Assembly (NCBI GenBank): GCA_946410665.1
Contig: CAMKBC010000003.1
Span: 1-55,074, forward strand
Source: an uncultured Clostridia bacterium
Lineage (GTDB): Bacteria > Bacillota > Clostridia > TANB77 > CAG-508
Direction of reading: 5' to 3'
Length of the DNA: 55,074 nucleotides
Each line of letters opens with the position of its first letter. Positions within the stretch are counted from its first letter, which is position 1. A program made the translations under genes and the position numbers. This document shows positions 13,954-55,074 of the stretch, piece by piece. The notes below the pieces were generated by a model. That model was not told the origin of the DNA. It searched no databases and was given only the letters and a program-made list of their open reading frames with translations.

Positions 13954-13994
13954 AATTAGATAAACTACAGAAAGAAAAATAAAGGAAGAGGATT

Positions 13995-35471: not shown

Positions 35472-35502
35472 AAAGAGACCTGTTTTAGGTCTCTTTTATT
35501 TT
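35472..35502 (+). terminator. Rho-independent terminator after minC
   Basis: agagacct (35474-35481) pairs with aggtctct (35487-35494), followed by a T-rich tail. Confidence 0.8.
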
Positions 35503-35594: not shown

Positions 35595-35623
35595 TTGATA
35601 AAGTAATAAATTAAAAGTATAAT
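35595..35623 (+). promoter_or_regulatory. Candidate sigma-A promoter of the 1615-aa surface protein gene
   Basis: TTGATA (35595-35600), 17-nt spacer, TATAAT (35618-35623). About 65 nt upstream of the ATG. Confidence 0.55.
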
Positions 35624-35687: not shown

Positions 35688-38600
35688 ATGAAAAACTTTA
35701 TTAGAACAATCTCATTCATAGTAGTAACAGTGTTGATATTATCAACAGTATTACCTGTTTCTATTTATGCATCATCAGTAATAACTGACGGTGAAAACAA
35801 TGGCACAGTAGTAGGTGCAAAAACAGGATCTGAAGATATAACGATGCAGATTACACCTGAAGGAGAATTAAAAGGATCGACAGGAGACGAAAGTTTAAAC
35901 GAAAACGGTATTCCGTCAGGAAACTATATAGTGGAAATTCCTGTTGTAATTGATGCATATAATTCATCATACATAAAAGATGCATCTATTAGTTTTGCGA
36001 ACAGTAATTTTACTGTTGTTGATTCCAGAATTGCGGATAATAAAAACGTACAATCAATCAACAAGGATGTAATCAAATTAAATTCTTCTGAAATAGATGA
36101 AAAAATAGAATTAAATATTCCAGTATCATTTAAGAAAGTTGATTATGTTGCTGAAGATTATTTTAATAGAGCAGTAACTGTAAAACTTGAAGGTACATAT
36201 GTAGATAAAAATGGAACTGAAAAAACTTTTTCTAAACAAACTCAAGTAAACATTTCATGGCATGTTCTTGAAAAAGAAATTCTTGCAAAAGCGAGAATTG
36301 TAAGAAGTTTTGAGTTTACAGAAAACAATGTAAGAAATGCTTTAGTTACAGTAGAACTTACTTCTGGAATAAAAGATGGAAGAGCACCAGAAAAAGAAGA
36401 ATCATTAGAGGTTAGTGTTCCAACGATTAATAATATTCATCCAGAATTAAGAGTTTCAACAGAAAAATACACAACAGAAGAAAATCCAGTTACCGGAAAA
36501 TTAACACTAAACAAAAATATAGAAAAAAATGAAAATAACGAGTATAAATGGGATAAAGAAAGTGAAAAAATATATGTTACATACATATATAGAGGCATAA
36601 ATAACAACTTCTATTCTAGTATAGAAAATATGCAAGTTGATTTTGTGGCGAATATAAAAACAGTTGATGAAGCGGAAACAAAAACAAAACACGCAAGAGA
36701 GACGGAAATAGCAGGAACAAACACCCCAATAATAGTAGAAGCAACAGCCACATCAAGTATTAACAGAGGAGCTATAATAGCAAATGTTGGAATAGACACA
36801 GATTTCGATGTTAAGTATTTATTAAACATTGGCTATGCGGGAACAACTAATTCAATAACATTAAAAGAAAACACAGAGGCATCAGCTGTTAAAACAAAGA
36901 GTATAAGTGCTAACGCAAATGAAATAACAAGAGTGTTAGGAGACAGCGGAAAAATTACAGTTTCTTTTACAGAGGGAACAGACACATATGAAATAAACAA
37001 AAACAATACAACAATTACAATTCCAAATGGAAAAAAGATAAAAGATATTACAACTTCAAAGCCAACTGGTGATGGAAACTTAAATATAAAAATAGTAAAG
37101 ACAGTTAATAATAGTGATAAAGAAGCGTTGGCAAATAAAACAAAAATTACAGGTGGCGCAACAATCACAAATACAGCTTTAGATAATAGCCAAACAACAA
37201 TCGCTTGCGAATGGGAAACCAAAATAGAAGAACCTACACAAAAAATTCAATTCGAATCAAAATTCAAAACTTTATCAACTGTTAAGAAAAATGAGAGAAT
37301 GATTTTATCGGCTATTTTAGAATCTGATTCAGTAGATGATTATTTATTTAAAAATCCAGCAATAAGAATCACATACCCTTCAGACATTAAAACAATATCT
37401 AATGTTACAGTTAATGTTTTATATGATGATTATAGTGAATTGAACAAAAGCATAACACCAAGAGTGGATAATGACAAACATACAATCGTTGTAGAATTAT
37501 CAGGAGAACAAAAACACTATTGCACATCAGCTGTTTCTAAAGGAATTCTAGTTCAAATTGAGGCAGATTACACATTGGATAGATTGGCACCAACAAAAGA
37601 TTCTGAAATAAAATTAGAAGCGTATAATGCTAACACAAATAAAACGACGGAACTAAAAAAAGGAATTAGAATAGTAGCACCAACTAAGTTTATTATTCAA
37701 AACAAAATGGAAGTGACAAATTCTAATAACCCTATTGGTGCAGAGAATGTTTATAACGAAATAAGGGAGACAATAGAAGAAGATGTAGAAGATATTATCT
37801 TACCTTTATATAGTAGTGCAAAGTATATAGATGTATATGGAACAGTGGTAAACAACCAAGGTACGTCTACTGATAATGCAATCATAATAGGAAACTTCCC
37901 ATCAAAAAATACAAACTCATATTCTGGAACCCAATTTAATGCAACATTCGATACAAAAGTAATGGGTGAAATAAACATAGATGGAGAAAGAAAGAGAGAT
38001 GCAAACAACCCAAATGGCACATATAAAGTTTACTATAGCAAAAATGCAAACGAGGCAATAAACTCAAATGGCTGGTCAGAAACACTATCTGAGGATGCTA
38101 AATCTTATAAAATAGTTTTTTTAACACCATTTGAAAATGCAACAAAGAAAGTTTTCCACTATAAAGTAATTACTCCGGAAAATATGACTTACAATGAGCA
38201 CGCAAAAGAATCTTTTGCATTCTTATATGGAAATGGATCAATATCCGGTGAACAATATTCATATCTTGAGGCTAAAACTATAGGTGTTGCAACAAAGCCG
38301 GAAGCCGATTTTTCTGTAGACATATCAGTGAAAGACTATGAATCAAAACAAGAAATAAGAAACGGAGATACAGTAAGAGAAGGTGCATATTTAAGTTTAA
38401 AGATTTCAATAACCAATGTTTCAAACAGAAACATTAAAGATGTTAAAGTTGTTGTTGATTTAATGCAGGGATTAAATAAAGCTAAGATTATCGAAAATCA
38501 AGTAACACATTATGGAAAATACGGAAACATAGAAGAATCTATAGGCGAAATTAAAGCTTCAGAAACAAAAACATTAAATGAAATGCTATATGTAGATCCA

Positions 38601-40535
38601 ATTACAGATGACACAGAAGACATGTATACGAATATGAACGTGGAAGTATATGAGAAAAATGTGTTGGAGTTTGTATATCAAGATTTTAAAAACAAAATAG
38701 AAAGCAGAACAATATCGGGAATAACTATTTCTACAGCTGAAAAAACAGACGTTGGAATAAATGATACTTTCCAACAAATATTCTATATTAGAAATCTAAC
38801 AGGAAGTGAAATAAACAATGTTGAGATAAAAGGAACGGTTCCAAAAGGAATAGAATATGATGAAGAACAAAACAATGAAATTAAAATTGATGGTTTGACA
38901 TATTCTTATGATTCAAATAAAAAGGAATACACTATAAAGATAGATAAGATTTCAGCATATGCATTTACTACAGCATCTATTAATGAAATTGCAGTGAATT
39001 TCAAGGCAATAGATTATGGAGATTATGTATTAAAAACAAAAGCATATCTAAATAATGAAGAAATGAATTTCAATGATATAAATATTACAGTGGCTGGCAA
39101 AGCAAGAAACTTTGAAGTATCACACACAATAAGTACACCAACAAACCAAGTTAAAGATACGGATACTTTCAATTTTAACATTACAATAAAGAGTCATTGG
39201 GATAGTGAGAAAATAGTAGAATTCAAAGACGATATGAATGATAATTTTGTTGTTTATGAATACGAAATACTACAAAACGGCCAATCATTAACAAAACACA
39301 AAAATGTTAATTTGATAGAATATAACTATAAAATGAAACCAGAAGATGTTGCAGAAATTAGAATTAAATGCGGATTAAAAACTCAATCAAAAGGTACAAC
39401 GATAAACTTAACTCATAGTCCAGAAGCTATATGTAATAATGTTAAAATTACAATAAATCCAATCACAATTAATGTTACTGGAACAGGAGAGTTTGTTAAT
39501 ACAAATGTTCCTGAAATAGATGGTAAGTACAGCATTTCGGGAAAAGCATGGTTAGATGCAAACAATGATGGAAGACGCGAAGAAACAGAGCAACAAGTAT
39601 CAAATGTAAAGATGCAATTAATAGACAACAAAACTAATAGAGTTTTTGTGGATGATGAAGGCAATGAAAAAACTACAACGACAAATACAAACGGAGAGTA
39701 TTCGTTTAATAATATACCAATCGGAAGTTATATTGTAATTGCATATTATGATTCTGAAAAGTATGGTTGTGGTTATTATCAAAATAGAAATGTTGCTGAA
39801 GATTTGAATAATGATTTCATTGAAACAGAATATGAAGGAACGATAGTTGGAACAACAGATAATATAATTATTCAAAACACTAGTATTTATGCAATAGATC
39901 TTTCATTGATTCCAAGAAACACATTTGATATGGCATTAGATAAAAATGTCACTAGCGTGTCGATAACAGCATCAAATGGAAAAGAGGCAAATTATAAATA
40001 CAACAATGAAATGGCAAAAGTAGAAATATCAAATGAAAAGAACGTTAAATATTATTTTGTAATTGAATACACATTAACAGTAAAAAATGTTGGCTACATT
40101 GATGGATATGTAAAATCTGTAATAGATTATATTCCAAAAGGAATGACATTTATTCAAGAAGACAATCCTGGATGGTACATAAAATCTGATGGAAATGCAT
40201 ACAACGATACACTAGCAAACACTTTGATAAAAGCTCAAAATAAGGTTGATGTAAGAATTAAACTAAGAAAAGAAATGACAGCAGAACAAACAGGAATAAT
40301 TAAAAACTCAGCAGAGTTAGGAGATACCTACAACACTGAAGGAATTGATGATATAAATTCCAAAGGAGCAAACAAGGATTCTAGTGAAAATGATTATTCA
40401 GAAGCACTAGTTGTGGTAGCACTAGCAACTGGTGGACAAATAATAAAAGTTGCAGGAATTGTATTTGGAGTACTAGCACTTGGGGTTATTATAATCTCAG
40501 TTACGAAATACAAGAGTAAGAAAAAAATAATTTAA
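35688..40535 (+). CDS. Large surface protein A1 (1615 aa): signal peptide, many Ig-like/DUF11-like modules, SdrD-B-like domain, terminal DUF11-like module, ALATG + TM + basic tail
   Basis: Signal peptide ...LPVSIYASS. ISGKAWLDANNDGRREETEQ...TNGEYSFNNIPIGSYIV is SdrD B-like. YFVIEYTLTVKNVGYIDGYVKSVIDYIPKGMTF is a conserved-repeat/DUF11-like segment. C-terminus VVVALATGGQIIKVAGIVFGVLALGVIIISVTKYKSKKKII. Confidence 0.85.
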   Translation: MKNFIRTISFIVVTVLILSTVLPVSIYASSVITDGENNGTVVGAKTGSEDITMQITPEGELKGSTGDESLNENGIPSGNYIVEIPVVIDAYNSSYIKDASISFANSNFTVVDSRIADNKNVQSINKDVIKLNSSEIDEKIELNIPVSFKKVDYVAEDYFNRAVTVKLEGTYVDKNGTEKTFSKQTQVNISWHVLEKEILAKARIVRSFEFTENNVRNALVTVELTSGIKDGRAPEKEESLEVSVPTINNIHPELRVSTEKYTTEENPVTGKLTLNKNIEKNENNEYKWDKESEKIYVTYIYRGINNNFYSSIENMQVDFVANIKTVDEAETKTKHARETEIAGTNTPIIVEATATSSINRGAIIANVGIDTDFDVKYLLNIGYAGTTNSITLKENTEASAVKTKSISANANEITRVLGDSGKITVSFTEGTDTYEINKNNTTITIPNGKKIKDITTSKPTGDGNLNIKIVKTVNNSDKEALANKTKITGGATITNTALDNSQTTIACEWETKIEEPTQKIQFESKFKTLSTVKKNERMILSAILESDSVDDYLFKNPAIRITYPSDIKTISNVTVNVLYDDYSELNKSITPRVDNDKHTIVVELSGEQKHYCTSAVSKGILVQIEADYTLDRLAPTKDSEIKLEAYNANTNKTTELKKGIRIVAPTKFIIQNKMEVTNSNNPIGAENVYNEIRETIEEDVEDIILPLYSSAKYIDVYGTVVNNQGTSTDNAIIIGNFPSKNTNSYSGTQFNATFDTKVMGEINIDGERKRDANNPNGTYKVYYSKNANEAINSNGWSETLSEDAKSYKIVFLTPFENATKKVFHYKVITPENMTYNEHAKESFAFLYGNGSISGEQYSYLEAKTIGVATKPEADFSVDISVKDYESKQEIRNGDTVREGAYLSLKISITNVSNRNIKDVKVVVDLMQGLNKAKIIENQVTHYGKYGNIEESIGEIKASETKTLNEMLYVDPITDDTEDMYTNMNVEVYEKNVLEFVYQDFKNKIESRTISGITISTAEKTDVGINDTFQQIFYIRNLTGSEINNVEIKGTVPKGIEYDEEQNNEIKIDGLTYSYDSNKKEYTIKIDKISAYAFTTASINEIAVNFKAIDYGDYVLKTKAYLNNEEMNFNDINITVAGKARNFEVSHTISTPTNQVKDTDTFNFNITIKSHWDSEKIVEFKDDMNDNFVVYEYEILQNGQSLTKHKNVNLIEYNYKMKPEDVAEIRIKCGLKTQSKGTTINLTHSPEAICNNVKITINPITINVTGTGEFVNTNVPEIDGKYSISGKAWLDANNDGRREETEQQVSNVKMQLIDNKTNRVFVDDEGNEKTTTTNTNGEYSFNNIPIGSYIVIAYYDSEKYGCGYYQNRNVAEDLNNDFIETEYEGTIVGTTDNIIIQNTSIYAIDLSLIPRNTFDMALDKNVTSVSITASNGKEANYKYNNEMAKVEISNEKNVKYYFVIEYTLTVKNVGYIDGYVKSVIDYIPKGMTFIQEDNPGWYIKSDGNAYNDTLANTLIKAQNKVDVRIKLRKEMTAEQTGIIKNSAELGDTYNTEGIDDINSKGANKDSSENDYSEALVVVALATGGQIIKVAGIVFGVLALGVIIISVTKYKSKKKII

Positions 40536-40562
40536 TAAAATGATTTTTTAGCAAGTAAAAAT

Positions 40563-40605
40563 AAAAACTCTTATATGAAGAAATTCATATAAGAGTTTTT
40601 GTTTT
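40563..40605 (+). terminator. Rho-independent terminator after A1
   Basis: 16-bp stem: aaaactcttatatgaa (40564-40579) pairs with ttcatataagagtttt (40584-40599), followed by a T-run. Confidence 0.85.
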
Positions 40606-40765
40606 GACAAAAATGGTTTTGTTCTACGAAATACTGGATTAAAAGAAATAATAATACAAAAATATTACAAAAAAAAACGGATTAAACATAAAAAATGAGT
40701 ATTATTGCATTTATATATAAATATAATATAGCCTGAAACGAAATGTGAGAAAAAGGAGAAAAACT

Positions 40766-43700
40766 ATGCTAAAGAAAAGGATAATTAAAGGGATAATCTT
40801 AATTGCAATAAGCTTAATTGCTTGTCTTGTAAGCGGCAACTATTGCAACGGATATGTACCAGTAGAAGGAGACTCTGTTTCACAAGAGTATTTGAGTACT
40901 TTCGTAAACGATAGGTTCAACGACGGACAACCATATGGAAGCCAGTTACTTCAATATGTACATTACGTGCATTACGAAGGAGATGAGACTGACTATTCGT
41001 TCTTTTGCAACGATTTAGGTTATCCACCAATATTGATAAATTCTTTATCAGGTGAATACTCTTTAGGTTCGCCAGATGTTAGTTTGGTATCGAGTCGACA
41101 AGGAGAAGATAAAATAAATCCTCAAATTGCATATGCTATGGATATAGGTATTTTACCTAAAAATTTAGGTGGAACCGAAAAATCTTGGGAAGACTTACAA
41201 GTTCTAATTTGGGATGCTAAGAGAGATACTGAACAAGGTTCAGCGAGTGGAGATGGATTATTAAATGCTAAGTCAAAAAAACCTAAAAACATTACTAGTT
41301 CAATTCCAAAAGAGGTTTATAGATTTAGAAAAGTTTATGAAGAAATCTTTGAAAAGACACTTGTAAAAGATCAACCATTATTTAGACTTGAAGATAAGCA
41401 AGCTAGTTTGTTTGTAGATCAAAATGATGGAACATATATATATGGACCATTTCAATTAAAAGTTAATTGCGATGCACCTGATGAGACAATTAAGTATTTA
41501 ATAATGGAAATTATGGAAGAAGGGCGCGTAGATTATATAGACTATGATAAAGGTGAAGCATATATAGAAAACTTTTATAAGTTCCATCAGTCTATAGATG
41601 ATTCTTTTATAAATAACGGGTTCAGTGATGGATCTAAGAAAAAATTAAAGTATAGCACAAATCCAGCAAACAAAGATAAAAATCTATATAGTACAATAAT
41701 AGTTGACAACCGCGGAAACCCAATTGATTTTCCTAAAGTTAACAATAGCGATGCCGAAACTAACAACTTCTTCATAAAATTTTACCCAGCAAACGGTGGA
41801 GCAATAATAAATCTAGGAAAAGCTGATAATTCGGCCGAATTGTTCAAATTGAAAGTAAAATATGGACATTATTTGGAATATACAGAACACACACAACAAG
41901 GGGCACTATACTCAAAAGGCTTGGTAGCAACGTTGCATGTGGAAGATAGAAGCAATCGTGTTATAGAACCAGGGTATTTTGGCCAAAGTCTTAGAGATCA
42001 AGGTGATGAAAATCCTGAAGATACAGGTTGGAGAGTTACTTGGTCAAGACTAGATGCGTTTGACGCAAATAGAATGTGGTGGAACTCTTTTTTGCAATAT
42101 ATAGGTATACCAAGAACACTGGCATTGTATTTAAAAGTATCAAGTGGAAATGGTACTGCAGATTCTAATGGTGCAATGAGAACAGAGCTTATAAATAATA
42201 CAAATTTTAATTTAGGTATGTCAAGTACAATTTATAATCCTGTAGACGAGATTGGAGAAACATATATCCTATATCGTCTAAATGATTATTATACAAATTT
42301 GCATTGTGTCGGATTCTCTTCAGGTTATCTTAATGACTGTGGAGCAAGTATATTCACACCATTTACATTCGGAGGGGTATTGCCTGATGAATCAGTAGAT
42401 ATAACGAATCTAACAAAATCGATAAAAGATAATTATGGATTTCCTTTACAACAGGGAATGAAAGCAATAGATTACTGTGGAATTGTACGCGAAGAACAGG
42501 AAGTAACTTTTAGTGCAAGTGGAAGTAAATATGTAAAAGATAAAGATGCATATTGGGATCCTGAAGAAGGTGCTGAAGGTGCAGTACATCACGGGGAAGA
42601 AGGTCACACAGAATATGATACTGCCTCTAAAACTATGAAAATATACAGATATAGATTTGTAAATTGGGGTGAATATGGCGAATCAACTATTAGTGGTTGG
42701 AAGTCAGCCAATATGATTGATTCTGGTACAGCAAATACATCAATAACATCAGGCACCCAAGATGACTATACAGTACCATCTGCTAGTCAACTAAATAGTT
42801 ATGACTCTGATTATAGCTATGGAACCGTAACATATACAGTTAATCCTGATGCGTGGTCTATTGTAAAAGTTTATGGCGGAGGATCTAATGCTTGTGGTGC
42901 AGGTAAGAGTGGCCAAGGTTTTGGATATGTATTAAAAAATGAAGGATGGTTTTATGACAAATATTTTGAGTCATATATGGGCAGACAAACATTAAGCAAC
43001 GCTTTAGGTCAAGGAGATGATCATGCTTATACATATACTCCGGGAAAAGCTGTTGGAGAATATGATGTTTGGATTCCAAAAGATTTACCTCAAATCCCTA
43101 ATATTACAGGTCCAGAATCAGCAGAAGCTTGGTATAGTACACAGGCAGAAATGAAAAATCTAAAAAACAACATACAAAGTTTTATTTCGTTCGGAATTCG
43201 CGGAACTGTTAAAGATAAAAAAGTTTACCAATATGGAACACAAACATCTACTGAATTTGTTGCGCTACCACATTTAAAAATAGCGGAAGCGTTTGGTGGT
43301 AATGTATGGAAAGAGTCAGTAGGGGTCAAAGGCATACCAGAAAAAGATGTGGATGGCATATATAACTCGGGAGACAAAAATGGAGATGGAAGAGAAGAAG
43401 CATATCAAGCAGTAAAAGTAGATTTATATGAATGTAATATAAAATACAAAGAACCACAGCAAGACCAATATATATCTAGTGCAGATATAGAGCCGGCAAC
43501 ATACTTGACAAGTACATTTACAGATTCGGATGGTGATTATAGATTCTTTGGTAAAATTGCTGAAAATGTACCATTAATCAACCCTTTGAAAAAGTATATT
43601 GTAAAATTTGTATATAATGGCCAGATTTATGCGCAAACATTATATAATGTAAATTTAGGTTCTGATTATAGTGAATATAAAGAAAAAACTTCAAAGGCTA

Positions 43701-46700: not shown

Positions 46701-48565
46701 TATATCAAAGAGATTTAGCTTCAAATAGCCAAGTAAATCAAAATGCAATAAGCTACAAGATGAAAGAAAATAATGAAGTTAAAGGTTATGTTGATACATT
46801 AAATCAAGATTATGCAAGTATGTACAATTACAACAACAATCAATTAAGAGCAAAAGAACAATTATATGATAGTAATATAATTTACTATGCAGGACAACCA
46901 ATTAATAATAGTGGAGATTTAGCACCTTCACAAAATGCTAAAAATTCAAATCCAAGATCTAACATTGCAAACTCATATGGTTCAATGTGGAGATATGATA
47001 GAGTTGCAACAGAAGGAAATAAAGCCTTATCAGATGTTAACGACTTATATGGATATAGACAACGTGGAATTGATTATGCACAAGGTTATGCACAAGGCGT
47101 ATCAGAAAACGAGAAAACATTATTAAACTACAGAGCAGAAGTATTAAGTTCATTCGAAAGACTAACATCTCAAGAGTATGCAGACGGAACATATAATAAA
47201 GATGTTCAAAATGCTATGATTGATGAATTAACTGCAAACACATATATGGTTGCACAAACTGGTATCATTTCAATGAACAATGAATACGAAGGTAAAAATG
47301 ATAACGATCCTAATATCTTAAATGGTGCTGAGGACCCATCAACATCATTACATAGAGTAAGCAAAACATATGAAAACCATGAAAGCAATGTAGATTTAGG
47401 TTTAGTAGAAAGACCTAGAGCACAAGTTAAATTAACAAAGAATGTTTCTAACATGGAAATCAAATTAGCAGATGGACAAACATTGTTTAATGCTAACACA
47501 TCAATGAAGAACTTAATATACGATGACCATAGTGAACATGATATTACATACAAAGAACCTAACAAAGGTCCTATACTAGAAAAAGTAAGAGTAACATTAG
47601 ACAGTCAAGGAACCCCAGAATTAATTCAAGCATTTATGGATGACGAAATTATGGATGGAGCTACAATCAACATAACATATCACTTACAAGTAGAAAATGT
47701 TGGTGAAATTGACTATATCGATAGAGATTTCTACTTCTATGGTAAGAAATCTGGAAACGTACAACCAGTCACAACAAAGGTTGTAAGAGTAATCGATTAT
47801 GTTCCAAACGATGTTTCATATGATGCTTCAAAACAAAACGAAGATGCACATTGGGATGTTTATAAACCAAGTGAATTAATTAACTCTAGAATTACAGAGA
47901 CACCAAATGCAAACAATCAAATTGACCCAATCACAAATGGTGAATCATTTGTAGATCCTGTAGCAAGCACAACAGATGGATTCATTAATAGAATTACTGC
48001 AAGAGCTGAAACAGGCGATTTCTATGATAAAGTTAATAGAGATTATGTAACAAGAACATATGCAAACGAGGTTGAAACATACAATACAATCGTTGTTACA
48101 AAAGACATGAATGATGAATTATTACCTACACTATATGTAAAAGATAATAGTGCATTAGAAGGAAGAAATGTTGATAACACAACATTAATACTTACAACAT
48201 CAATTACAGCAAGCGGAAACAGTGACGACTTAACATACAACAATTTAGCTGAAGTAATTGAAACAGCAAATGCATACGGTAGAAGAATGCAATTCTCTAT
48301 CTCTGGAAACCAAGAGATGGCTAACCAAGATATTAACGACGGTGGTGGAACAAGAACAGAACAAGATCATCACGCATACTCATCATCTAAGATAGTACAA
48401 CCAAGAGAAATCGATGCAGATAGTGCTCAACAAGTTCAAATCTTACCTCCAACAGGTAGTCCAGAATATAGAAACAAATTATTAACAATAATTACAACAA
48501 CAATTGCAACAATCATCGTATTAGTAGGTGCAATAATCATTAAGAAAAAGGTTTATGACAAATAA
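40766..48565 (+). CDS. Giant surface protein B1 (2599 aa from ATG 40766): signal/lipobox-like leader, thioester-domain-like N-terminus, SdrD-B-like and DUF11-like modules, (PG)n linker, C-terminal LPPTG sorting signal
   Basis: The ATG at 40766 follows AAAAGGAGA. The track's GTG at 40745 is less likely. Leader MLKKRIIKGIILIAISLIAC. FFCND (Cys codon 41006-41008) and LQVLIW (Gln codon 41198-41200). Two SdrD-B-like segments. LPPTG (48443-48457) followed by a TM and KKKVYDK. Confidence 0.85.
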   Translation: MLKKRIIKGIILIAISLIACLVSGNYCNGYVPVEGDSVSQEYLSTFVNDRFNDGQPYGSQLLQYVHYVHYEGDETDYSFFCNDLGYPPILINSLSGEYSLGSPDVSLVSSRQGEDKINPQIAYAMDIGILPKNLGGTEKSWEDLQVLIWDAKRDTEQGSASGDGLLNAKSKKPKNITSSIPKEVYRFRKVYEEIFEKTLVKDQPLFRLEDKQASLFVDQNDGTYIYGPFQLKVNCDAPDETIKYLIMEIMEEGRVDYIDYDKGEAYIENFYKFHQSIDDSFINNGFSDGSKKKLKYSTNPANKDKNLYSTIIVDNRGNPIDFPKVNNSDAETNNFFIKFYPANGGAIINLGKADNSAELFKLKVKYGHYLEYTEHTQQGALYSKGLVATLHVEDRSNRVIEPGYFGQSLRDQGDENPEDTGWRVTWSRLDAFDANRMWWNSFLQYIGIPRTLALYLKVSSGNGTADSNGAMRTELINNTNFNLGMSSTIYNPVDEIGETYILYRLNDYYTNLHCVGFSSGYLNDCGASIFTPFTFGGVLPDESVDITNLTKSIKDNYGFPLQQGMKAIDYCGIVREEQEVTFSASGSKYVKDKDAYWDPEEGAEGAVHHGEEGHTEYDTASKTMKIYRYRFVNWGEYGESTISGWKSANMIDSGTANTSITSGTQDDYTVPSASQLNSYDSDYSYGTVTYTVNPDAWSIVKVYGGGSNACGAGKSGQGFGYVLKNEGWFYDKYFESYMGRQTLSNALGQGDDHAYTYTPGKAVGEYDVWIPKDLPQIPNITGPESAEAWYSTQAEMKNLKNNIQSFISFGIRGTVKDKKVYQYGTQTSTEFVALPHLKIAEAFGGNVWKESVGVKGIPEKDVDGIYNSGDKNGDGREEAYQAVKVDLYECNIKYKEPQQDQYISSADIEPATYLTSTFTDSDGDYRFFGKIAENVPLINPLKKYIVKFVYNGQIYAQTLYNVNLGSDYSEYKEKTSKAIDENRDQFNKRFENIYADSNNYTFDGKRYTGCNGQLEPTYTYTGRAYGLKHVVKEAIDGIANDPSADPALDTFEEQYNLFIKNNTHEEFLTTTAEYEFQHAGGADLGNTQITVGTGEIVNSDIDKTWEHTPGIPIDYNYSGLSPSVANYIKDCMIEASVPYADATHDLTVYGRNIGMTDFHKQFPEQATFNLKDLNRTYMEGYKKWTLTEVSMRVTVQPQPGDAENMYEVPPEIEKYIGRTIYPIGTSVVLFTYKGEEYYRIVGPNGVALTDAIKVASLSDDYNFNFKENDNTDVDFIDETIKVGSQEIEWEPDPEPPGPGPGPGPGPGPGPIIYTLKYLKWDYAQVDEVKTIEHRYEPPKEHYINLYNKEFDLRHCWSFGVYQRNFNEVQLEKDLYKATMVVNGKKEVYSYSGKLPNEDGDQYNFEVGELINLNKPVNGGTPYTREVRKSDYLYDENVSYGDGKYSKNIKAYLTYKIKVHNASPYTIRINEIADYYDADNLEFDGVRDASGRYEIATHTQNIDGQITQSKYTYASNLRDTAGHDVNKEYIGIYDNSAYTNGDNTKVRETFKIANDGQDNNGQPYNLKTLYIRGNGAEGIPVVSKKGDVETVTNQLLPSQSTILFVTFKVKNNTIDNGISTFTNQIKLDQITRDFADKLPTIGKNNFAEINSYASYYTAEMPGDAAVEEKQYYRPYAEGKIRYGNNEATYIHPDGTEERIEGRDICIAGVVDVYSNPGSFTERDVEVVRTDDGEYKELRFKDNSYRKITRPEGMPKLNKDDAAEESLPTVEPDMDKAPSIRIILDDDQIRKISGYVFEDEKTVNSDGSPIGNGKMDDGETRINGVTVQLVELIQDVDYDGTFTGQYIGEKVWDECEYTGLSDVKYQLKAGSENQGAQYYSGKGTKYILNSTSDLVKIYSDPSVANETTEDGKYCFAGLPSGDFVVRFIYGDTDRTVLTNGTDNNDSEKEEAVRETAAVNELTGRTGMNVKSYNGQDFKSTVYQRDLASNSQVNQNAISYKMKENNEVKGYVDTLNQDYASMYNYNNNQLRAKEQLYDSNIIYYAGQPINNSGDLAPSQNAKNSNPRSNIANSYGSMWRYDRVATEGNKALSDVNDLYGYRQRGIDYAQGYAQGVSENEKTLLNYRAEVLSSFERLTSQEYADGTYNKDVQNAMIDELTANTYMVAQTGIISMNNEYEGKNDNDPNILNGAEDPSTSLHRVSKTYENHESNVDLGLVERPRAQVKLTKNVSNMEIKLADGQTLFNANTSMKNLIYDDHSEHDITYKEPNKGPILEKVRVTLDSQGTPELIQAFMDDEIMDGATINITYHLQVENVGEIDYIDRDFYFYGKKSGNVQPVTTKVVRVIDYVPNDVSYDASKQNEDAHWDVYKPSELINSRITETPNANNQIDPITNGESFVDPVASTTDGFINRITARAETGDFYDKVNRDYVTRTYANEVETYNTIVVTKDMNDELLPTLYVKDNSALEGRNVDNTTLILTTSITASGNSDDLTYNNLAEVIETANAYGRRMQFSISGNQEMANQDINDGGGTRTEQDHHAYSSSKIVQPREIDADSAQQVQILPPTGSPEYRNKLLTIITTTIATIIVLVGAIIIKKKVYDK
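44651..44695 (+). repeat. Hexanucleotide tandem repeat (CCAGGA)x7 with one CCGGGA variant, encoding a (Pro-Gly)n linker inside B1
   Basis: Read directly: ccagga ccagga ccagga ccagga ccggga ccagga ccagga cca. Translates PGPGPGPGPGPGPGP. Confidence 0.95.
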
Positions 48566-48596
48566 ACTAAAATCTTAAATAAAGGCAAAAAGCCAT

Positions 48597-48647
48597 AAAA
48601 AAGAGGTAAAATCAAGGCGAAAAACCAAGATTTTACCTCTTTTTTTC
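48597..48647 (+). terminator. Rho-independent terminator after B1
   Basis: aagaggtaaaatc (48601-48613) pairs with gattttacctctt (48629-48641), followed by a T-run. Confidence 0.85.
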
Positions 48648-48697
48648 GTCTAAATTGCTATATTATATATAATAATGTAGGTTTTACAGTAAAAAAC

Positions 48698-48726
48698 TTG
48701 AAAAAAATGGCAAAACTTGGTATAAT
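48698..48726 (+). promoter_or_regulatory. Near-consensus sigma-A promoter of the A2-B2 operon
   Basis: TTGAAA (48698-48703), exact 17-nt spacer, TATAAT (48721-48726). Confidence 0.65.
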
Positions 48727-48769
48727 AAAAGTGTTATATTGTGATTATTACTAAGGAGGACAAGATTAT

Positions 48770-51700
48770 ATGTATTCTAAATTAATAAACAAGATTATCA
48801 CTATTCTTGCTATTATTTCTTTTTTAGGTATTCAAATAATGCCAGCAGTATCTATGGCTGTAGAAGAAATCAATCAAAACATAGCAACAAATGAAGAAAA
48901 CGTTAAGTTTAATGCAACTTTAAATGGAACAGGCTCATACACAATGGAGGCTGATCTAACTCAAAATCCAACAATTGATTTTGAAATTAAAGTTGAAAAG
49001 ACTGGTTATTTAAAAAACATAGTTGTAGAAGCTAAAGGTGCTAACTATGAATTATTAAATGACCTTGAAGAATCACAAACAGCAATTAACTCAATCAAAG
49101 GAAACACAATTAACTTTAATAATATCGATGCCGGAAACACAACAGTAGCATCAGTAAAGATTAAAGCAATAAAAGAAGATGTTACCAAATACGAAAACTT
49201 TGATAAGATTTCTTCTATTGTTTTAAAAGCTACTTACGTTAACAAAGATGGTAACGAGAAAGAAATCAAGAAAGAGTTAAAAGAACAAGTTAAGTGGAAT
49301 ACAAAAGCAGAAGCGGACTTAAACCTAGAACTTCTTAGATATTTAAAATACGAAAATAGTAGAACAATGATTAGTATCAAAGTTAGTGATGGTATAAAAG
49401 ACAACATAATACCAGCTTCATCAAAAGAAATCACAATTGATATTCCAAAGTTGAATGGACAAGCACCAACAGTTGTTTCAGCAACTGGTAAGAATGCTAC
49501 ATACAAAAATAAAAATGACAAACTAATTATAAGTAAGTCAAACGATAACAATTCACTTGCATGGAATTCAAACGAAGATTTCATAGCTAACTTTATTTAT
49601 GAAACTCAATCAGATGACAAGAATATATCAGTTCAAGCTTCAGAAACGATTAAAACAATTAGAAACGATGAAATCACAGCAAGCAAATCTGAAAACTTCA
49701 GCATCGAATCAGAAGTAGGACATATTCTTGAGATTTCAACAACAACACCAGGTGAAATCAACAAAGGTTATATGTATACAAATATCAACAGCGCTAAAGA
49801 ATTCACAACGAATTACGAGGTTTCATACAGATTAAACATTGGACTACAAGATTTAACAAATAAAATTGTTTTAACAGAAGTAAGTAATGAATTAGCAACA
49901 GACAACGATGTGTTAAACAATACAGCTATCAAAAACAAAAAAATAAAAGTTGATTCAGACGAAATTAAGAACACATTAGGTGATGAAGGAAAGATTATTG
50001 TTAAGAAGTCAGACGGAGCAGAAATCGCAACATTAACAGCAAGCAATACAGAATTAGAGACAGACGAAGCAAAATTAATCTTTGAAACATCACAACCAGC
50101 TAACCCAGGAAACATTGAAATTAAAGTTGAAAAACAAATTGCAAAAACAAGCTTAAGTAGATCACAAATAAAAGCATTAACAACAATAAATTCAAAAGTT
50201 AACTTCAAAGGTTATAAAGATGAAAAAGTTGTTTCAGAAGGAAATGGTACAGTAAAAATTAAATTATCAGAACCTTCATCAAAAGCAGCTTTAGATATAA
50301 GTCAAAACACATTATCAACAATTGCTAAGAATGAAGATGTAGTGTTCAACGTAGTATTAAAAACAAAAGACATCTCAGATGCACTTTATACAGATCCTAG
50401 AATTTCAATTGAATTACCAAGCAAAGTAAACAATATTGAAATCAAGAAAGCAGAAATTTTATACGACAATGAAATTATCGCAGGAGACAGTTCAGTTAGC
50501 GGAGACACAATCAACGTTAGTTTAAGAGGACAACAAACAGACTATAGTAAATCAGCTACAACAGATGGTTTATTAGTTAGAGTTGAAACAAACATCGATC
50601 TTGAAGATATGGCAACATCAAGCAATGATAAAGTTAAATTAACATATACAAACAATGCAACAGGAGAAACAAACATCGTAGAGCAAGATGTAAAAATAGT
50701 TGCTCCTTCAGAATTTGTATTATCAAGCACAATTTCTAACGAATCAAAGAGAGAAATAACAATAGTAAAAGATATTACAAACTTCAGAGTACATGCTAAT
50801 AGAGATGTTCAAAGATTAAAATTTGGCGGATCTGTAGTTAGCAATTTAGGAAAAGATGCAACAGGATTTGCTATCGTTGGAAGAATTCCTTTCAAAGGAA
50901 ATAAAACATTATCAGGAAAAGATTTAGGAACAACAGTAGATACAAAGATTATAAAAGCAGTTGAAGTAAGTGGAATTGAAGATGCAACAGTTTACTACAG
51001 TGAAAACGGAGAAGAATCAGTTGACGGACAAGGTTGGACAACAGAGCTTACAGCAAACTCAAAAACATACAAAATTGTTTCTAACAATAATCTTCCAGAC
51101 AAGGCAAAAATAGATTTCAATTATGAAGTTGAAGTTCCAGCAAACTTAGATTTTGAGCAATCATTAAATTCAATCTATGGAGTTTACTTCAATAATGATT
51201 CAACAGAAGGAATTAAGAAAGATTTAGTTGAAGCAAAAATTGTAGGTGCAAGAACAGAAGACAAACCTGCACTAGAATTAGAAGTAAAAGCATATGATGA
51301 AGCGGGAAGCGAAATAAATCAAAACAGTGAGAATGAAGAAGGAAAGAAAATCACATACAAAGTTAATATTAAAAACACAAAGAGCATCACAATTAAAAAT
51401 GCAAAATTAAACATTGAATTACCAGATGGATTGTCATTCGTCGGTGGTGATAAATCAGCAACATATGCAGAAATACCAGCTAACAGTGTTAAGACTGTTG
51501 AAATAAGAACACAAATAAATGAGCTACCAACAGATGTAGATACAGATGAACTTAAAGTTAAAGCAACTGTTTCTGCAGATGACATGGAAGCAAATGCAAC
51601 AAACGAATTTACAATCAAGAGAGTTCTTGGACAAATGATTTTACAATTAAAGAACCAAGTTTCTCCAAACAGCACACACCCTAAAGGAAGTGTAGTTACA

Positions 51701-53449
51701 TATTCACTTGAAGTTAAGAGCCCTAACAGCAGAAAACAAACAAACGTAAATGTAAAACTTCACTTACCACAAGGAACAGAATATAGAGGCGAAGACTACG
51801 AATACGATAAAGGACAAAATGTTGTTTCAGTAAAATATGATGAAGTTGGAAAAAATCCAAAGAGAATGATCGTGTACGTATCAGTTACAGAGGATTATCC
51901 AACATTAACAGCATATGCCACAGCAACAAGTGATCAAACAAAAGGAGAAATTAGAACTCCAGATAACACAGTTAACGGAAACATTGCAAAGAAATATATA
52001 ACAGCAAATCAATCAGTAAATATTGATGAAAACAAAGTATTAGATACAGATTCTGTTGAATTCTATGTAGATATAAAGAACGATAAAGACGAAGATGTAT
52101 TAATAAGAATTAAAGATGAATTTAAAGATATTGTTTACCTAAGAGATTTCACAATTACAGGAAATGTAGAAGTTTCATCTAAAAACAAATCATACATAAA
52201 TGATGAATTTGTTTTAAATGCAAAAGGTACAGCAAGAGTAACAATTAAATGTGCAATCTACAGTCAACAAGAAGGTTCACAACATTCATATGATCACAAA
52301 CCAATATTAACTGTTGATAATGAAGAAATAGACATTAATACTATTACATTAAAAATCACAGGAACAGGAAAAACAGTAGCTCCTGAAAATCCAGATAAAC
52401 CAGACGTTCCAATCGCAGACGGAACATTCAAGATTTCTGGTAGAGTATGGTTTGATGAAAACAATAACGGACAACAAGATGTATTTGAAAAAGCAATTGG
52501 TAATCTAGAAGTTATGCTATACGATGCTAACACACAAGCGATAGCAAAAGATAGCAAAGGAAACGAAGTTAGATTAACAACAGGTGCTGATGGAAAATAC
52601 ACATTCACAAATTTAAATAAAGGAAAATACAACGTAATTGTTAAATACAACATTGAAGAATATGCACCAGGTCCATACAGAGCAAACAAAGTTGCAGACT
52701 CTGACAACAACGACTTCGTACAAGCTAAACTTAGCGGAGAAGAAGTTGCAGGATGCGACACAATCACATTAAAAGACGTAAACGTATACAACATAGATTT
52801 AGGATTATCATTAAGAAACACATTCGATTTAAGACTAGATAAGAGAATATCTAAAGTTACAATCGTAAGAGCAGGAAGTGATACACCTACAATTTATGAA
52901 TACGACAACGTTGAATTAGCAAAAATTGAATTACCTAACAGCAATATTGAAGGTATTACAGTTATAGTAGAATATAAAATTTTAGTTACAAACCAAGGTC
53001 ACGTTCCAGGATATGCAAAATCAGTAGTTGACTACTTACCAAAAGGAATGGGATTCAGTGGTGAAGATAATAAAGATTGGTACTTATCAAACGGCAGTGT
53101 TTATACAACAAGTCTTGCGAATACAATTATCAATCCAGGAGAAACAAAAGAGTTAAAGCTAGTTTTAACTAGACAAATGACTAATGAAAATACCGGAATA
53201 GTTAGAAACACCGCAGAGATTGCAAGTTCATATAACGAACTAGGTATTGAAGATATCAATTCAAAAACATCAAACAAGATGGATGGAGAAAATGATATGT
53301 CTTCAGGAGCAATTGTTTTAGCAGTAGCAACTGGTAGAACAGCAATAGCAATCACAGGAATTACATTAGCAATTCTTGCAATTGCGGCAATAGCTGTATT
53401 CGAGACAAAGAAAAATGTAATAAACAAAACTTATACAAATATTCTATAA
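48770..53449 (+). CDS. Large surface protein A2 (1559 aa), diverged paralog of A1, ending in AVATG + TM tail
   Basis: Same order of blocks as A1. LKATYVNKDGNEKEIKKELKEQVKW matches LEGTYVDKNGTEKTFSKQTQVNISW. ISGRVWFDENNNGQQD matches ISGKAWLDANNDGRRE. NTFDLRLDKRISKVTI matches NTFDMALDKNVTSVSI. C-terminus IVLAVATGRTAIAITGITLAILAIAAIAVFETKKN. Confidence 0.85.
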   Translation: MYSKLINKIITILAIISFLGIQIMPAVSMAVEEINQNIATNEENVKFNATLNGTGSYTMEADLTQNPTIDFEIKVEKTGYLKNIVVEAKGANYELLNDLEESQTAINSIKGNTINFNNIDAGNTTVASVKIKAIKEDVTKYENFDKISSIVLKATYVNKDGNEKEIKKELKEQVKWNTKAEADLNLELLRYLKYENSRTMISIKVSDGIKDNIIPASSKEITIDIPKLNGQAPTVVSATGKNATYKNKNDKLIISKSNDNNSLAWNSNEDFIANFIYETQSDDKNISVQASETIKTIRNDEITASKSENFSIESEVGHILEISTTTPGEINKGYMYTNINSAKEFTTNYEVSYRLNIGLQDLTNKIVLTEVSNELATDNDVLNNTAIKNKKIKVDSDEIKNTLGDEGKIIVKKSDGAEIATLTASNTELETDEAKLIFETSQPANPGNIEIKVEKQIAKTSLSRSQIKALTTINSKVNFKGYKDEKVVSEGNGTVKIKLSEPSSKAALDISQNTLSTIAKNEDVVFNVVLKTKDISDALYTDPRISIELPSKVNNIEIKKAEILYDNEIIAGDSSVSGDTINVSLRGQQTDYSKSATTDGLLVRVETNIDLEDMATSSNDKVKLTYTNNATGETNIVEQDVKIVAPSEFVLSSTISNESKREITIVKDITNFRVHANRDVQRLKFGGSVVSNLGKDATGFAIVGRIPFKGNKTLSGKDLGTTVDTKIIKAVEVSGIEDATVYYSENGEESVDGQGWTTELTANSKTYKIVSNNNLPDKAKIDFNYEVEVPANLDFEQSLNSIYGVYFNNDSTEGIKKDLVEAKIVGARTEDKPALELEVKAYDEAGSEINQNSENEEGKKITYKVNIKNTKSITIKNAKLNIELPDGLSFVGGDKSATYAEIPANSVKTVEIRTQINELPTDVDTDELKVKATVSADDMEANATNEFTIKRVLGQMILQLKNQVSPNSTHPKGSVVTYSLEVKSPNSRKQTNVNVKLHLPQGTEYRGEDYEYDKGQNVVSVKYDEVGKNPKRMIVYVSVTEDYPTLTAYATATSDQTKGEIRTPDNTVNGNIAKKYITANQSVNIDENKVLDTDSVEFYVDIKNDKDEDVLIRIKDEFKDIVYLRDFTITGNVEVSSKNKSYINDEFVLNAKGTARVTIKCAIYSQQEGSQHSYDHKPILTVDNEEIDINTITLKITGTGKTVAPENPDKPDVPIADGTFKISGRVWFDENNNGQQDVFEKAIGNLEVMLYDANTQAIAKDSKGNEVRLTTGADGKYTFTNLNKGKYNVIVKYNIEEYAPGPYRANKVADSDNNDFVQAKLSGEEVAGCDTITLKDVNVYNIDLGLSLRNTFDLRLDKRISKVTIVRAGSDTPTIYEYDNVELAKIELPNSNIEGITVIVEYKILVTNQGHVPGYAKSVVDYLPKGMGFSGEDNKDWYLSNGSVYTTSLANTIINPGETKELKLVLTRQMTNENTGIVRNTAEIASSYNELGIEDINSKTSNKMDGENDMSSGAIVLAVATGRTAIAITGITLAILAIAAIAVFETKKNVINKTYTNIL

Positions 53450-53464
53450 TGAAGGGAGAAAAAA

Positions 53465-55074
53465 ATGAGTTATAAGAAGAATTCATTACTAAAGAAGATA
53501 GTATCTCCAATAGTATCAATAATTATTCTATGTTCATTAACCTCTGCTGTTTGTGCCATGGAATTGAGAACTGGCGGAATGCCTTATAATTACACACCTT
53601 TCCCAACTGATACTCTATGGGGTTGGTTCTGTTTCCAATTATCAACACCAACTAACTTCTACGATTATGTATCAGGAATACCAGAGGATGAAGATGAAGA
53701 TTCTGAACATGCAGGATTTAAGTATTCTAAATTTAAGTTAATCGAACATCACGAGGGAGAAGTTGAGCCATCTGTTGGTTATGCAATGTATTATGTTTCA
53801 ACACACTCTATCGCGAATGAAGCAAATGGATATCCAATTGATCCAAGATTAAACACACCAGATGTTAAGAAAACAAGATTAGCATTCCAACACGTTTTAT
53901 GGGCATCACAAAGATGGGGTAACGAATCAAATGTATATGGAACACATATACAACACAATTCAACATCATATGGCGAAGCTAAGAGACAAGGAATTGCTAA
54001 ATATGACAAGATAGAAGATAGAGCAACAGACTTCGGTAATGTTTATTACTACGTAACTAAACCATTACAAGAAAAGAAAACAAACTTCGAAGTTTCACCA
54101 GCTGTAGATGATCAAGATTCATTAGATGTTTTAGTAAATCAAGCAGATCAAAGTTATACAGTAGGACCTTACAAATTATCATTAAATATTACACCAGACA
54201 TGATTGAAGTTGAGGATTGGGCAAAAGACGATCCTAAGTTATTACCAACTCAAGAAAAAATCGACAATGCAAAAAACACATTATATGATGAGTTATCAAA
54301 CCCAGAAAAAATAAAAGACAAAGCAAGATTTGCATGGTCAGATGGAGTTGAAGGAATCAACGGTAAGAACGTAAAATACTTAAATGCAAACGGTGAAGAA
54401 ATAGCATTCCCTGATTTCAGAACAGGGGAAGAATTCTATATTAGATTTAATGATGATCCAGCTAATGATGGAATTTATGAAATAGGAAATCCAAAGATTA
54501 GAGTAAACTTCATAGACGCATTCGCCGGAGAAATCAAAGTATGGGCAGTAGAAGCATTAATAATTAAGAACTTAAAAATTAAAGTTCCACAAATTCACAT
54601 TCATCATGAGGCAGAAGAAAATCTAGAATTAGACCTTGAAGGACAAATTCAAGATAGTGGTTCAACAACTATTGGACATTATCATTGTGCAATTGTTGAT
54701 ATGGACAACATCCAAGGAGACAATGTTCCATCAACAGGATCTAGTGAATGGATTAGAATAGATGCAAGTTGTACATTAACAATGAAATTTAAATGGACAG
54801 CAAACTTCAGATTAACTGAAGATATGATAGGTACAGTTGAAAGTGATAAATATGGTAGACAAACAATCACTTGGGAAATGGTACAACGTCAAAAAGAAGT
54901 AGAAATCAAAGGTTTCTATTCTGAACAAGAAGTAAAAGACGTTAAGATTTCAAGATGGATTCAAGGTACACCACACTATGCAACAGGCAAGAATGATGAC
55001 GGCACAACATATAAATACATAGATTACTATGTATACGACTCATCATGGAACCATACAGAAACACCATGGCATGT
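53465..55074 (+). CDS. Surface protein B2, 3'-truncated at the window edge. Paralog of the B1 N-terminus (thioester-domain-like). Not in the supplied ORF track.
   Basis: AGGGAG RBS then ATG at 53465. The frame is open to the end of the window by manual translation: MSYKKNSLLKKIVSPIVSIIILCSLTSAVCAMELRT... (signal peptide). WFCFQ (Cys codon 53630-53632), VGYAMYY, FQHVLW (Gln codon 53888-53890) and YTVGPYKLSL parallel B1. Confidence 0.75.
   Translation, partial: MSYKKNSLLKKIVSPIVSIIILCSLTSAVCAMELRTGGMPYNYTPFPTDTLWGWFCFQLSTPTNFYDYVSGIPEDEDEDSEHAGFKYSKFKLIEHHEGEVEPSVGYAMYYVSTHSIANEANGYPIDPRLNTPDVKKTRLAFQHVLWASQRWGNESNVYGTHIQHNSTSYGEAKRQGIAKYDKIEDRATDFGNVYYYVTKPLQEKKTNFEVSPAVDDQDSLDVLVNQADQSYTVGPYKLSLNITPDMIEVEDWAKDDPKLLPTQEKIDNAKNTLYDELSNPEKIKDKARFAWSDGVEGINGKNVKYLNANGEEIAFPDFRTGEEFYIRFNDDPANDGIYEIGNPKIRVNFIDAFAGEIKVWAVEALIIKNLKIKVPQIHIHHEAEENLELDLEGQIQDSGSTTIGHYHCAIVDMDNIQGDNVPSTGSSEWIRIDASCTLTMKFKWTANFRLTEDMIGTVESDKYGRQTITWEMVQRQKEVEIKGFYSEQEVKDVKISRWIQGTPHYATGKNDDGTTYKYIDYYVYDSSWNHTETPWH

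Follow-up and report, generated by a model that had tools for sequence, protein, structure and literature searches.

Duplicated two-gene modules of giant surface proteins, with a putative thioester-type adhesin, in uncultured gut Clostridia

In the FCT pilus of Streptococcus pyogenes, the thioester-bearing tip adhesin Cpa is joined to a shaft of FctA (PMC7900414). Thioester domains (TEDs) are recognised by a [YFL]C-hydrophobic-hydrophilic motif containing the thioester Cys, a central helix motif, TQxx-hydrophobic-W, and, about 70–100 residues past the latter, a weak hydrophobic-Q-hydrophilic-hydrophobic-hydrophobic strand motif with the bond-forming Gln; outside these motifs they are extremely divergent (PMC4450167, PMC6194298). 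Among the stalk domains of surface proteins is DUF11, now named CLIPPER, which is CnaA-like and stabilised by isopeptide bonding (PMC12617251). In Clostridioides difficile, the proline-less NVQTG signal is not cleaved by sortase, and a protein deprived of its sorting motif stays in the membrane (PMC5569036). Here we consider a stretch of 55,074 nucleotides (nt), called the window below, from an uncultured Clostridia bacterium (assembly GCA_946410665.1, contig CAMKBC010000003.1), in which four large open reading frames (ORFs) follow one another on one strand, downstream of minC, in the order A1-B1-A2-B2 and encode giant surface proteins of two types, A and B.

By its motif types and by the pairing of a thioester-type adhesin with a rod, this locus appears to be closest to Cpa/FctA. 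In both cases the gene of a thioester-type adhesin adjoins that of a rod of immunoglobulin (Ig)-like domains, xPPTG or xVPTG motifs are used, and the C-terminal signals of the partners differ. Unlike the FCT pilus, the A-B cluster has no dedicated sortase or SipA gene, its proteins comprise 1500–3000 amino acids (aa) against 30–120 kDa, the tail of A is proline-less and at times consists of a membrane helix only, the genes run from stalk to adhesin, and there is no indication of A-B polymerisation. The initial annotation of the window could not match the pairing to any described system; no account of it was found in the literature searched, which treats fibrillar adhesins, TEDs and sortase substrates in general, and public records hold no names for proteins of either family. 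In our opinion, the locus is reasonably probable to represent a duplicated, co-expressed and co-evolving adhesion module composed of a stalk retained at the membrane or wall, A, and a wall-anchored adhesin, B.

The constancy of the pair was surveyed from both sides, the ORFs of each locus being classified with profiles built in this analysis (A full length, B stalk and B head). A scan seeded with A, with one genome per GTDB species, retrieved 58 loci; 65 A genes in 51 loci had their 3′ end and downstream sequence present. The next gene downstream on the same strand was a B gene for 62 of them, with a median gap of 15 nt and 55 of the 62 gaps not exceeding 30 nt. Three A genes had an unclassified neighbour, which in two cases was a short fragment cut by the contig end, and L061 was the sole A locus with a clearly different downstream neighbour. 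A scan of metagenomes seeded with B (71 loci, 0.86 Mb) gave 51 distinct B genes for which the upstream sequence extended over at least 1.5 kb. A lay directly upstream of 44 of these (median gap 15.5 nt, some genes overlapping), six followed another B gene (A-B-B or split B), and one, in L091, was an exception. Solitary genes are nearly absent (A 1/65, B 1/51), and this survey did not find the independent occurrence of A-type and B-type genes that the initial annotation had named as one observation that would refute the pairing. Remote B-like proteins from a protein search again stood in A-B-A-B contexts (L062, L064). Order, orientation and a spacing of about 15 nt survive where protein identity has fallen to about 25%, and independent duplications retain them too. 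As A and B genes adjoin one another in well over 100 related genomes, a joint function of the two proteins is very probable.

According to their labels, nearly all GTDB loci belong to uncultured gut Clostridia or to metagenome-assembled genomes (MAGs) of Clostridium (rabbit, sheep, human), with Clostridium sp. CAG:793 and CAG:780 among them. In a collection of 5.8 billion proteins, relatives of A2 form 38 clusters, those of B1 13 clusters and those of the B2 head a single one. A-B-B arrangements, with no A before the second B, occur in L014 (14721-24690), L077-L079, L087 and L117, and the second B of the metagenome A-B-B loci has 1701 aa. The B gene of several MAGs, for the most part that of the upstream module, is broken into separate ORFs for head and stalk (Table 1), which could be due to pseudogenisation, phase variation or assembly error.

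Within the window, A1 and A2 align in BLASTP as a single collinear end-to-end segment with 28% identity over 1544 aa (E=4e-165), a similarity far beyond chance; the same block order under heavy divergence had been described for them initially, and the pairwise check bore this out. B1 and the visible part of B2 gave a marginal pairwise match (23% over 207 aa, E=0.021), and their heads fit one pattern in an alignment of 31 B heads (Cys, Gln, Trp and the VDQ...TYTVGPY block). In the closest species representative (L004, JAZUKI010000003.1), the four genes recur in the order A1-B1-A2-B2, and B2 is complete there with 1980 aa; its C-terminal 1100 residues match B1 residues 1341–2599 with 32.7% identity (1338-aa alignment, E=7.5e-151). 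B2 orthologs have 1978–1980 aa and end in IMPPTG and a membrane helix. Because the complete B2 matches the B1 stalk, B1 and B2 are paralogs with strongly diverged heads; the head motifs bear out the common N-terminal architecture noted for them earlier. Kinship of A with B, suspected from their look-alike tails, was rejected by BLASTP.

The A-B-A-B order recurs in sister species and in distant relatives (L001, L005, L010, L013, L021, L025, L038/L047, L052, L062, L064). In neighbour-joining trees of A, copies from upstream modules of L001, L005, L010, L013, L021, L026 and L031 form a clade devoid of the TG motif, which is the sister of the A2-type clade; A1 is a deep, long branch near the split between the two, and the duplications in L038/L047/L058, L052, L062 and L064 are separate and younger. 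The upstream A copies without TG are consistently partnered by B with xVPTG, and A2-type copies by B with xPPTG. As the recurrent A-B-A-B order and the A tree show several independent module duplications, the A-B pair is the unit that was duplicated, and repeatedly so; duplication of a pair, not of a single gene, had already been proposed from the window. The distance matrices of A and of the partner B stalks are correlated with r=0.94 (41 pairs), a value reached in none of 999 Mantel permutations. Between the window and L004, A1 and B1 are 66% and 56% identical, A2 and the B2 head 82% and 85%, and module 1 evolves faster than module 2 in this genome. The most variable part of B1, aa ~400–800, shows 22–37% mean identity among B1 orthologs versus 62–86% in the stalk.

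The signals around the genes agree with what was first annotated. A2 and B2 lie 15 nt apart, with an AAGGGAG ribosome-binding site between stop and start, and one near-consensus promoter-like site precedes the pair; the ATG of A2 at 48770 has its own ribosome-binding site, AAGGAGG. A1 and B1 each have a terminator-like element, an AT-rich hairpin after A1 and a hairpin followed by T7 after B1. The former is weak and readable on either strand. The latter is GC-containing, with 12 bp and a loop of 15 nt, and was read by eye from the sequence, the automated scan having missed it because of this loop. For B1, the mechanical ORF begins at GTG 40745; AAAGGAG precedes ATG 40766, and the length of 2599 aa given originally matches this start.

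Protein A1 consists of a signal peptide, a long all-beta region, an SdrD_B domain (aa 1283–1356) and a DUF11/CLIPPER domain (aa 1449–1547), the two domains of A2 being found at aa 1222–1315 and 1399–1488. These are the only domains of A recognised by Pfam, both near the C-terminus: SdrD_B passes the Pfam cutoff in A1 and A2, whereas DUF11 passes it in A2 and falls slightly short of it in A1. An AlphaFold2 (AF2) model of A2 residues 31–1200, built on 24 family sequences, had a mean predicted local distance difference test (pLDDT) value of 84.6 and was all-beta, a chain of Ig-like sandwiches. Foldseek of this model against the PDB returned only generic long chains of Ig/MG domains with a template modelling score (TM) of about 0.1 (hydin, mastigoneme, alpha-2-macroglobulin/complement, archaeal S-layer), and none was accepted as a specific structural homolog. 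No enzymatic domain was recognised in A by Pfam or by Foldseek of the A2 model. Because the model is all-beta and the matches are generic, A looks like a rod in which neither an enzymatic nor an adhesive domain can be recognised. Both its length (about 1550–1710 aa) and the order of its domains vary unusually little in the family.

An elongated beta-sandwich chain, SdrD_B/CLIPPER stalk domains and a surface anchor place A1 and A2 among fibrillar adhesins by architecture, and A is like the described SdrD_B/CLIPPER members in having both domains near the anchor and a long Ig-like chain (PMC12617251, PMC9210967). In contrast to them, A has no tandem near-identical repeats; its domain order is fixed and unique, its length is constant, no adhesive tip was recognised in it, and its anchor motif is non-canonical. 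SLH and CWB2 wall-binding domains gave no Pfam match in A1, B1, A2 or B2.

Protein B1 is composed of a signal peptide, a head, a hypervariable region, a (PG)n linker, a conserved stalk and an LPPTG sorting signal. The head of B proteins comprises about 330 aa and the conserved stalk ~1250 aa, with a weak SdrD_B-like match in B1; the total length is variable in the family, about 1300–3000 aa. The microsatellite that encodes the B1 linker could change in length by slippage, and similar PG runs are present in other B genes, for example in L003. B is like the TIE proteins (SfbI, CpTIE, BaTIE and C. difficile CD3246) in its head motifs, beta-sandwich stalk and LPXTG-type anchor (PMC4450167, PMC6194298). 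Unlike them, it is far larger, contains the (PG)n linker and the unique stalk, has no match to TED profiles and, in comparison with TIE proteins as described, is obligately paired with an A gene. Such an obligate partner gene is a new feature relative to Gram-positive fibrillar and TIE adhesins.

In the alignment of 31 B heads, only a Cys, a Gln, a Trp, an Arg and a V-[DN]-Q...TYTVGPY block are strongly conserved. The Cys is located in [FY]-[FY]-C-x-[NDG] (FFCND, WFCFQ, LFCIN, YYCAD and others) in 30 of the 31 heads and is found in most of the remote heads as well. The Gln is invariant and the Trp near-invariant in [ILFM]Q-x-[VIL]-[VIL]-W, the Thr of the TQxx-hydrophobic-W motif being usually replaced; remote heads contain the near-canonical QEAIW, QKAIW or QFAIW. 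The corresponding motifs are FFC81ND, LQ145VLIW149 and VDQ219NDGTYIYGPF in B1 (numbered from ATG 40766) and WFC56FQ, FQ142HVLW146 and VNQ226ADQSYTVGPY in B2. Candidates for all three TED elements are present in the published order, and the B2 spacing (C56, Q142, Q226) resembles that of P0035, a protein with a Pfam-recognised TED. When P0035 is aligned with the B heads, it agrees with them in the Cys column and in the ...Y-x-[VA]-G-P-Y block, and the near-invariant Gln (B1 Q219, B2 Q226) falls within one residue of its VMQTIG...YVAGPY; the local Gln motif fits loosely. With head motifs corresponding to the set seen in Gram-positive thioester domains, B is probably a covalent binder, and we regard it as likely that the head is a thioester domain. 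A Cys protease or transglutaminase reading was rejected, no invariant His or Asp being seen beside the Cys in the 31 heads. The P0035 TED gave no relatives in phmmer against the PDB or in tblastn against plasmids. Only 48 clusters among 1.84 billion representative proteins match the head profile, so the head family is rare and unannotated.

The C-terminal tails of the two proteins differ systematically. A1 ends in VALATGG, a membrane helix and KKKII, A2 in LAVATGR, a membrane helix and KK, and B1 in ILPPTG, a hydrophobic stretch and KKK, as the A[LV]ATG and LPPTG types assigned to them at the outset. Among 109 distinct A tails, the motif is [SGAT][VMIL]xTG, with Pro in 0/92 motifs, and it is missing in 17 tails (16%), where only the membrane helix and basic tail are present. 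A motif was found in 104 of 118 distinct B tails, mostly of the form [LM]PP[TF]G (LPPTG 37, LPPFG 24, MPPTG 12, plus xVPTG and related). B has all parts of an LPXTG-type signal, that is, motif, hydrophobic stretch and basic tail, and A the hydrophobic and basic parts only. One B tail scored above the cutoff of TIGR01167 (LPXTG_anchor), and one B-family member matches Pfam Gram_pos_anchor. Exosortase or Firmicu-CTERM-like sorting was rejected, as NCBIfam gave weak LPXTG-type matches only for eight isolated tails. The xPPTG of B resembles PPKTG among the (S/P)PxTG substrates of C. difficile SrtB, and the xVxTG of A resembles the uncleaved NVQTG (PMC5569036); as distinct from those substrates, A and B are unrelated proteins of different organisms. 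Because the tail motifs differ and the NVQTG precedent exists, B would be linked to the wall and A retained in the membrane or otherwise processed.

No sortase gene was found in the window, the initial annotation having noted none adjacent to the pair, and the A-seeded loci had none at a distance of up to about 10 kb from the module. The only one near any module in about 135 loci is in L122 (9358-10107, 249 aa), 221 nt downstream of B, where the tails are SVETG (A) and LPPTG (B). Its product (Pfam Sortase, E=2.7e-26) has a TLITC motif and an N-terminal but no C-terminal membrane segment. A C-terminal membrane segment is typical of pilus-specific class C sortases. The L122 gene indicates that the clade has sortases and lends no support to a dedicated pilus sortase; with a sortase adjoining in one of about 135 loci, the module is not a classical pilus cluster.

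These data may be combined as follows. The window contains two diverged tandem copies of a conserved two-gene operon characteristic of a clade of low-GC uncultured gut Clostridia, and A and B would both be Sec-exported giant surface proteins, translated from one mRNA with the genes 15 nt apart, co-evolving and co-duplicating. For A, the prediction is a rod in which roughly a dozen or more Ig-like beta sandwiches are followed by SdrD_B and CLIPPER; it would stay attached through its membrane helix or be processed by another enzyme. B would combine a fast-evolving head, a flexible Pro-Gly linker, a conserved stalk and a canonical-type sorting signal, by which a sortase encoded elsewhere in the genome would cross-link it to peptidoglycan; its head would probably bind a ligand covalently. 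The two may form one adhesion apparatus with a conserved basal or stalk partner, A, and a variable adhesin, B, and tandem duplication followed by divergence may have given alternative binding or antigenic specificities. A bolder version, which we consider rather unlikely, has A and B united in one giant heteromeric fibre at the surface, with over 4000 residues; a sortase encoded at a distance would ligate the PPTG Thr of B to A, or the stalks would be held in tight non-covalent contact, so that the membrane base A carries an exchangeable covalent-binding head B.

Several observations weigh against an adhesion module of a retained stalk and a thioester-type adhesin. One B head, that of L009, lacks the Cys. 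TED profiles (Pfam PF08341, TIGR03934) matched neither B1 and B2 nor 31 + 21 + 10 family heads, the head family profile had no match among PDB sequences, solved TEDs included, and hhalign (local and global) of B heads against the P0035 TED gave 11% probability with the match outside the TED. An AF2 model of the B2 head from a 12-sequence alignment was unusable (mean pLDDT 33.7). The thioester-like head of the initial annotation thus stands as to motifs, their order and spacing, and has failed in all profile tests and in modelling. In about one-third of B tails, those of the L041-L059 group and metagenome relatives, the motif reads [LM]PPFG, Phe standing where sortase motifs have the scissile Thr. 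To our knowledge, PPFG is not a sortase substrate, and no known sorting system accounts for the Phe variant. As for cooperation, A and B have no BLASTP similarity to each other, no known interaction domain was detected in either, and no adhesive domain was found in A by Pfam or by Foldseek of the A2 model. The correlation of A and B-stalk distances is weak evidence of interaction, because linked genes co-diverge anyway. In the window A1 and B1 are separated by 230 nt with a hairpin in between, and therefore A-B coupling can be relaxed.

The same facts bear on three other explanations. The products could form a covalent two-subunit or short-polymer fibre, a giant sortase-built pilus in which the Thr of B [LM]PPTG is joined to a lysine of A, with A as the base, bound to membrane or wall, and B as the thioester tip. 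The strict and old gene pairing, the rod of Ig-like domains in A, similar to pilin shafts, C-terminal signals that differ as among subunits of one pilus, and the sortase gene close to B in L122 are all in line with it, as is the likeness of B xPPTG and xVPTG tails to VPPTG, QVPTG and EVPTG of Cpa and FctA (PMC7900414). However, the window and roughly 134 of 135 other loci have no sortase within about 10 kb, the sole L122 enzyme is of the form without a C-terminal membrane segment, no SipA-like gene was noticed in the flanks, and A and B are about 5–10 times larger than known pilins. A tails without Pro, 16% of them with no TG motif at all, and the third of B tails that have PPFG and no Thr do not fit either. 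No pilin motif was identified, and nothing like YPKN was noticed among conserved A columns; pilin acceptor lysines are not always within a YPKN-type motif (PMC7900414). We therefore judge such a pilus unlikely, slightly more so than the heteromeric fibre, and the shaft-plus-tip pilus likened to the pair in the initial annotation was not supported by the survey of sortases and A tails.

It is a little less likely still that A and B are independent fibrillar adhesins sharing an operon for co-regulation only and not depending on each other physically or functionally, as might be supposed from the frequent clustering of surface-protein genes in Gram-positive genomes, the separate signal peptide and anchor of each protein, the hairpin and 230 nt between A1 and B1, and the A-B-B arrangements (L014, L077-L079). 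Co-regulation alone, however, rarely keeps such strict adjacency at this depth, whereas here order, orientation and ~15-nt spacing persist to about 25% identity and across duplications, and solitary genes are nearly absent. Least probable of all, and in our view very improbable, is that the module serves as a structural part of the envelope, a coat resembling an S-layer or connected with cell shape, in place of an adhesin. This would agree with the site, conserved in many species between mreB-mreC-mreD-PBP2(-minC) and a SpoIIE-like gene, with the strikingly constant length and domain order of A, and with the archaeal S-layer protein among many generic Foldseek matches. Yet synteny by itself is weak evidence, TM of about 0.1 reflects Ig-like repeats only, no SLH, CWB2 or other S-layer anchoring domains were found by Pfam, and B heads are hypervariable, several being pseudogenised or split, unlike essential envelope parts. 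Strict adjacency, together with the hypervariable and sometimes disrupted B heads, makes both independent adhesins and an envelope role less likely than an A-B adhesion module.

The two module copies together occupy about 19 kb of the window, which is DNA of a low-GC (about 31%) Firmicute chromosome. Upstream of them are the core genes dnaX, recR, a Mur ligase gene, ddl, a dnaJ-like gene, pcrA, mecA and radC, followed by mreB, mreC, mreD, a PBP2-type transpeptidase gene and minC. The insertion site is conserved, because in many relatives the module sits between the mreBCD-PBP2 block and the SpoIIE-like gene (about 815 aa). Origin from a mobile element was rejected in view of the core chromosomal neighbours (dnaX, recR, ddl, pcrA, mecA, mreBCD, PBP2 and minC) and of cross-species synteny. 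In the window, minC (34817-35443) is not followed by minD/minE.

Table 1. Positions of features in and around the two modules (window numbering, + for the forward strand) and of split B genes in related loci (numbering of each locus)
Feature	Position	Strand	Basis or remark
minC terminator-like hairpin	35472-35496		
Promoter-like site 5′ of A1, TTGATA-17-TATAAT	35595..35623	+	downstream of minC terminator-like hairpin
A1, 1615 aa, predicted to be secreted, rod-like	35688..40535	+	ORF call, Pfam, BLASTP
AT-rich palindromic hairpin, 17 bp, T/A runs on both flanks, between A1 and B1	40563..40600	.	
B1, 2599 aa, from ATG 40766	40766..48565	+	
B1 head, thioester-domain-like motifs	40943..41470	+	31-sequence head alignment
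B1 hypervariable region, aa ~400-800	41966..43165	+	ortholog identity
B1 Pro-Gly linker, (ACCAGG)x7.7 tandem repeat, between head region and stalk	44650..44695	+	
B1 conserved stalk, aa 1341-2559	44786..48442	+	common to all B-family proteins, including B2 ortholog
B1 C-terminal sorting signal: LPPTG, hydrophobic stretch, KKKVYDK	48443..48562	+	
Intrinsic-terminator-like hairpin 3′ of B1, arms AGAGGTAAAATC / GATTTTACCTCT, then T7	48602..48646	+	
Near-consensus promoter-like site for A2-B2, extended -10, TTGAAA-17-TGgTATAAT	48698..48726	+	
A2, 1559 aa, A1 paralog	48770..53449	+	ORF call, Pfam, BLASTP, AF2
B2 5′ part, ATG 53465, 536 codons, runs off window end	53465..55074	+	
Split B genes	L001 14729-20606; L005 3832-9650; L013 3643-9661		
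Split B genes	L026 4003-9929; L031 3608-9641; L027 7316-12263		

A second type of pair is located elsewhere in the window (12472-21656) and consists of genes for a 493-aa protein and, 41 nt further on, a 2553-aa protein. The former contains MucBP, SpaA and DUF11/CLIPPER domains and an IAIKTG plus membrane-helix tail, its C-terminus being 37% identical to that of A2; the latter is built of BspA-type leucine-rich, SpaA and Gly-rich repeats without a C-terminal anchor. The smaller protein may be an anchored partner of the unanchored giant. The same pair is also present downstream of B2 in GCA_016648615.1. At 10212-12206, there is a gene of a TraG/VirD4-type type IV coupling protein (Pfam T4SS-DNA_transf, E=8.6e-83), and no other conjugation genes were recognised among the neighbours scanned.

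If the head of B is a true thioester domain, it extends the TED family past the current profiles of Pfam and NCBIfam, which miss it, and the B head alignment could seed a new family model. The A-B module would add a new organisational principle for Gram-positive surface fibres that does without a dedicated pilus sortase, and the heteromeric A+B fibre, if true, would mean that Gram-positive adhesive fibres can also be made by a new route that needs no polymerisation. The carriers are common, uncultured Clostridia from the gut of humans, rabbits, ruminants and wild mammals, for which about 19 kb devoted to two modules is a large investment. A conserved anchor-plus-adhesin pair, duplicating as a unit and varying mainly in the head, would be a plausible determinant of the attachment of these bacteria to their host or niche.

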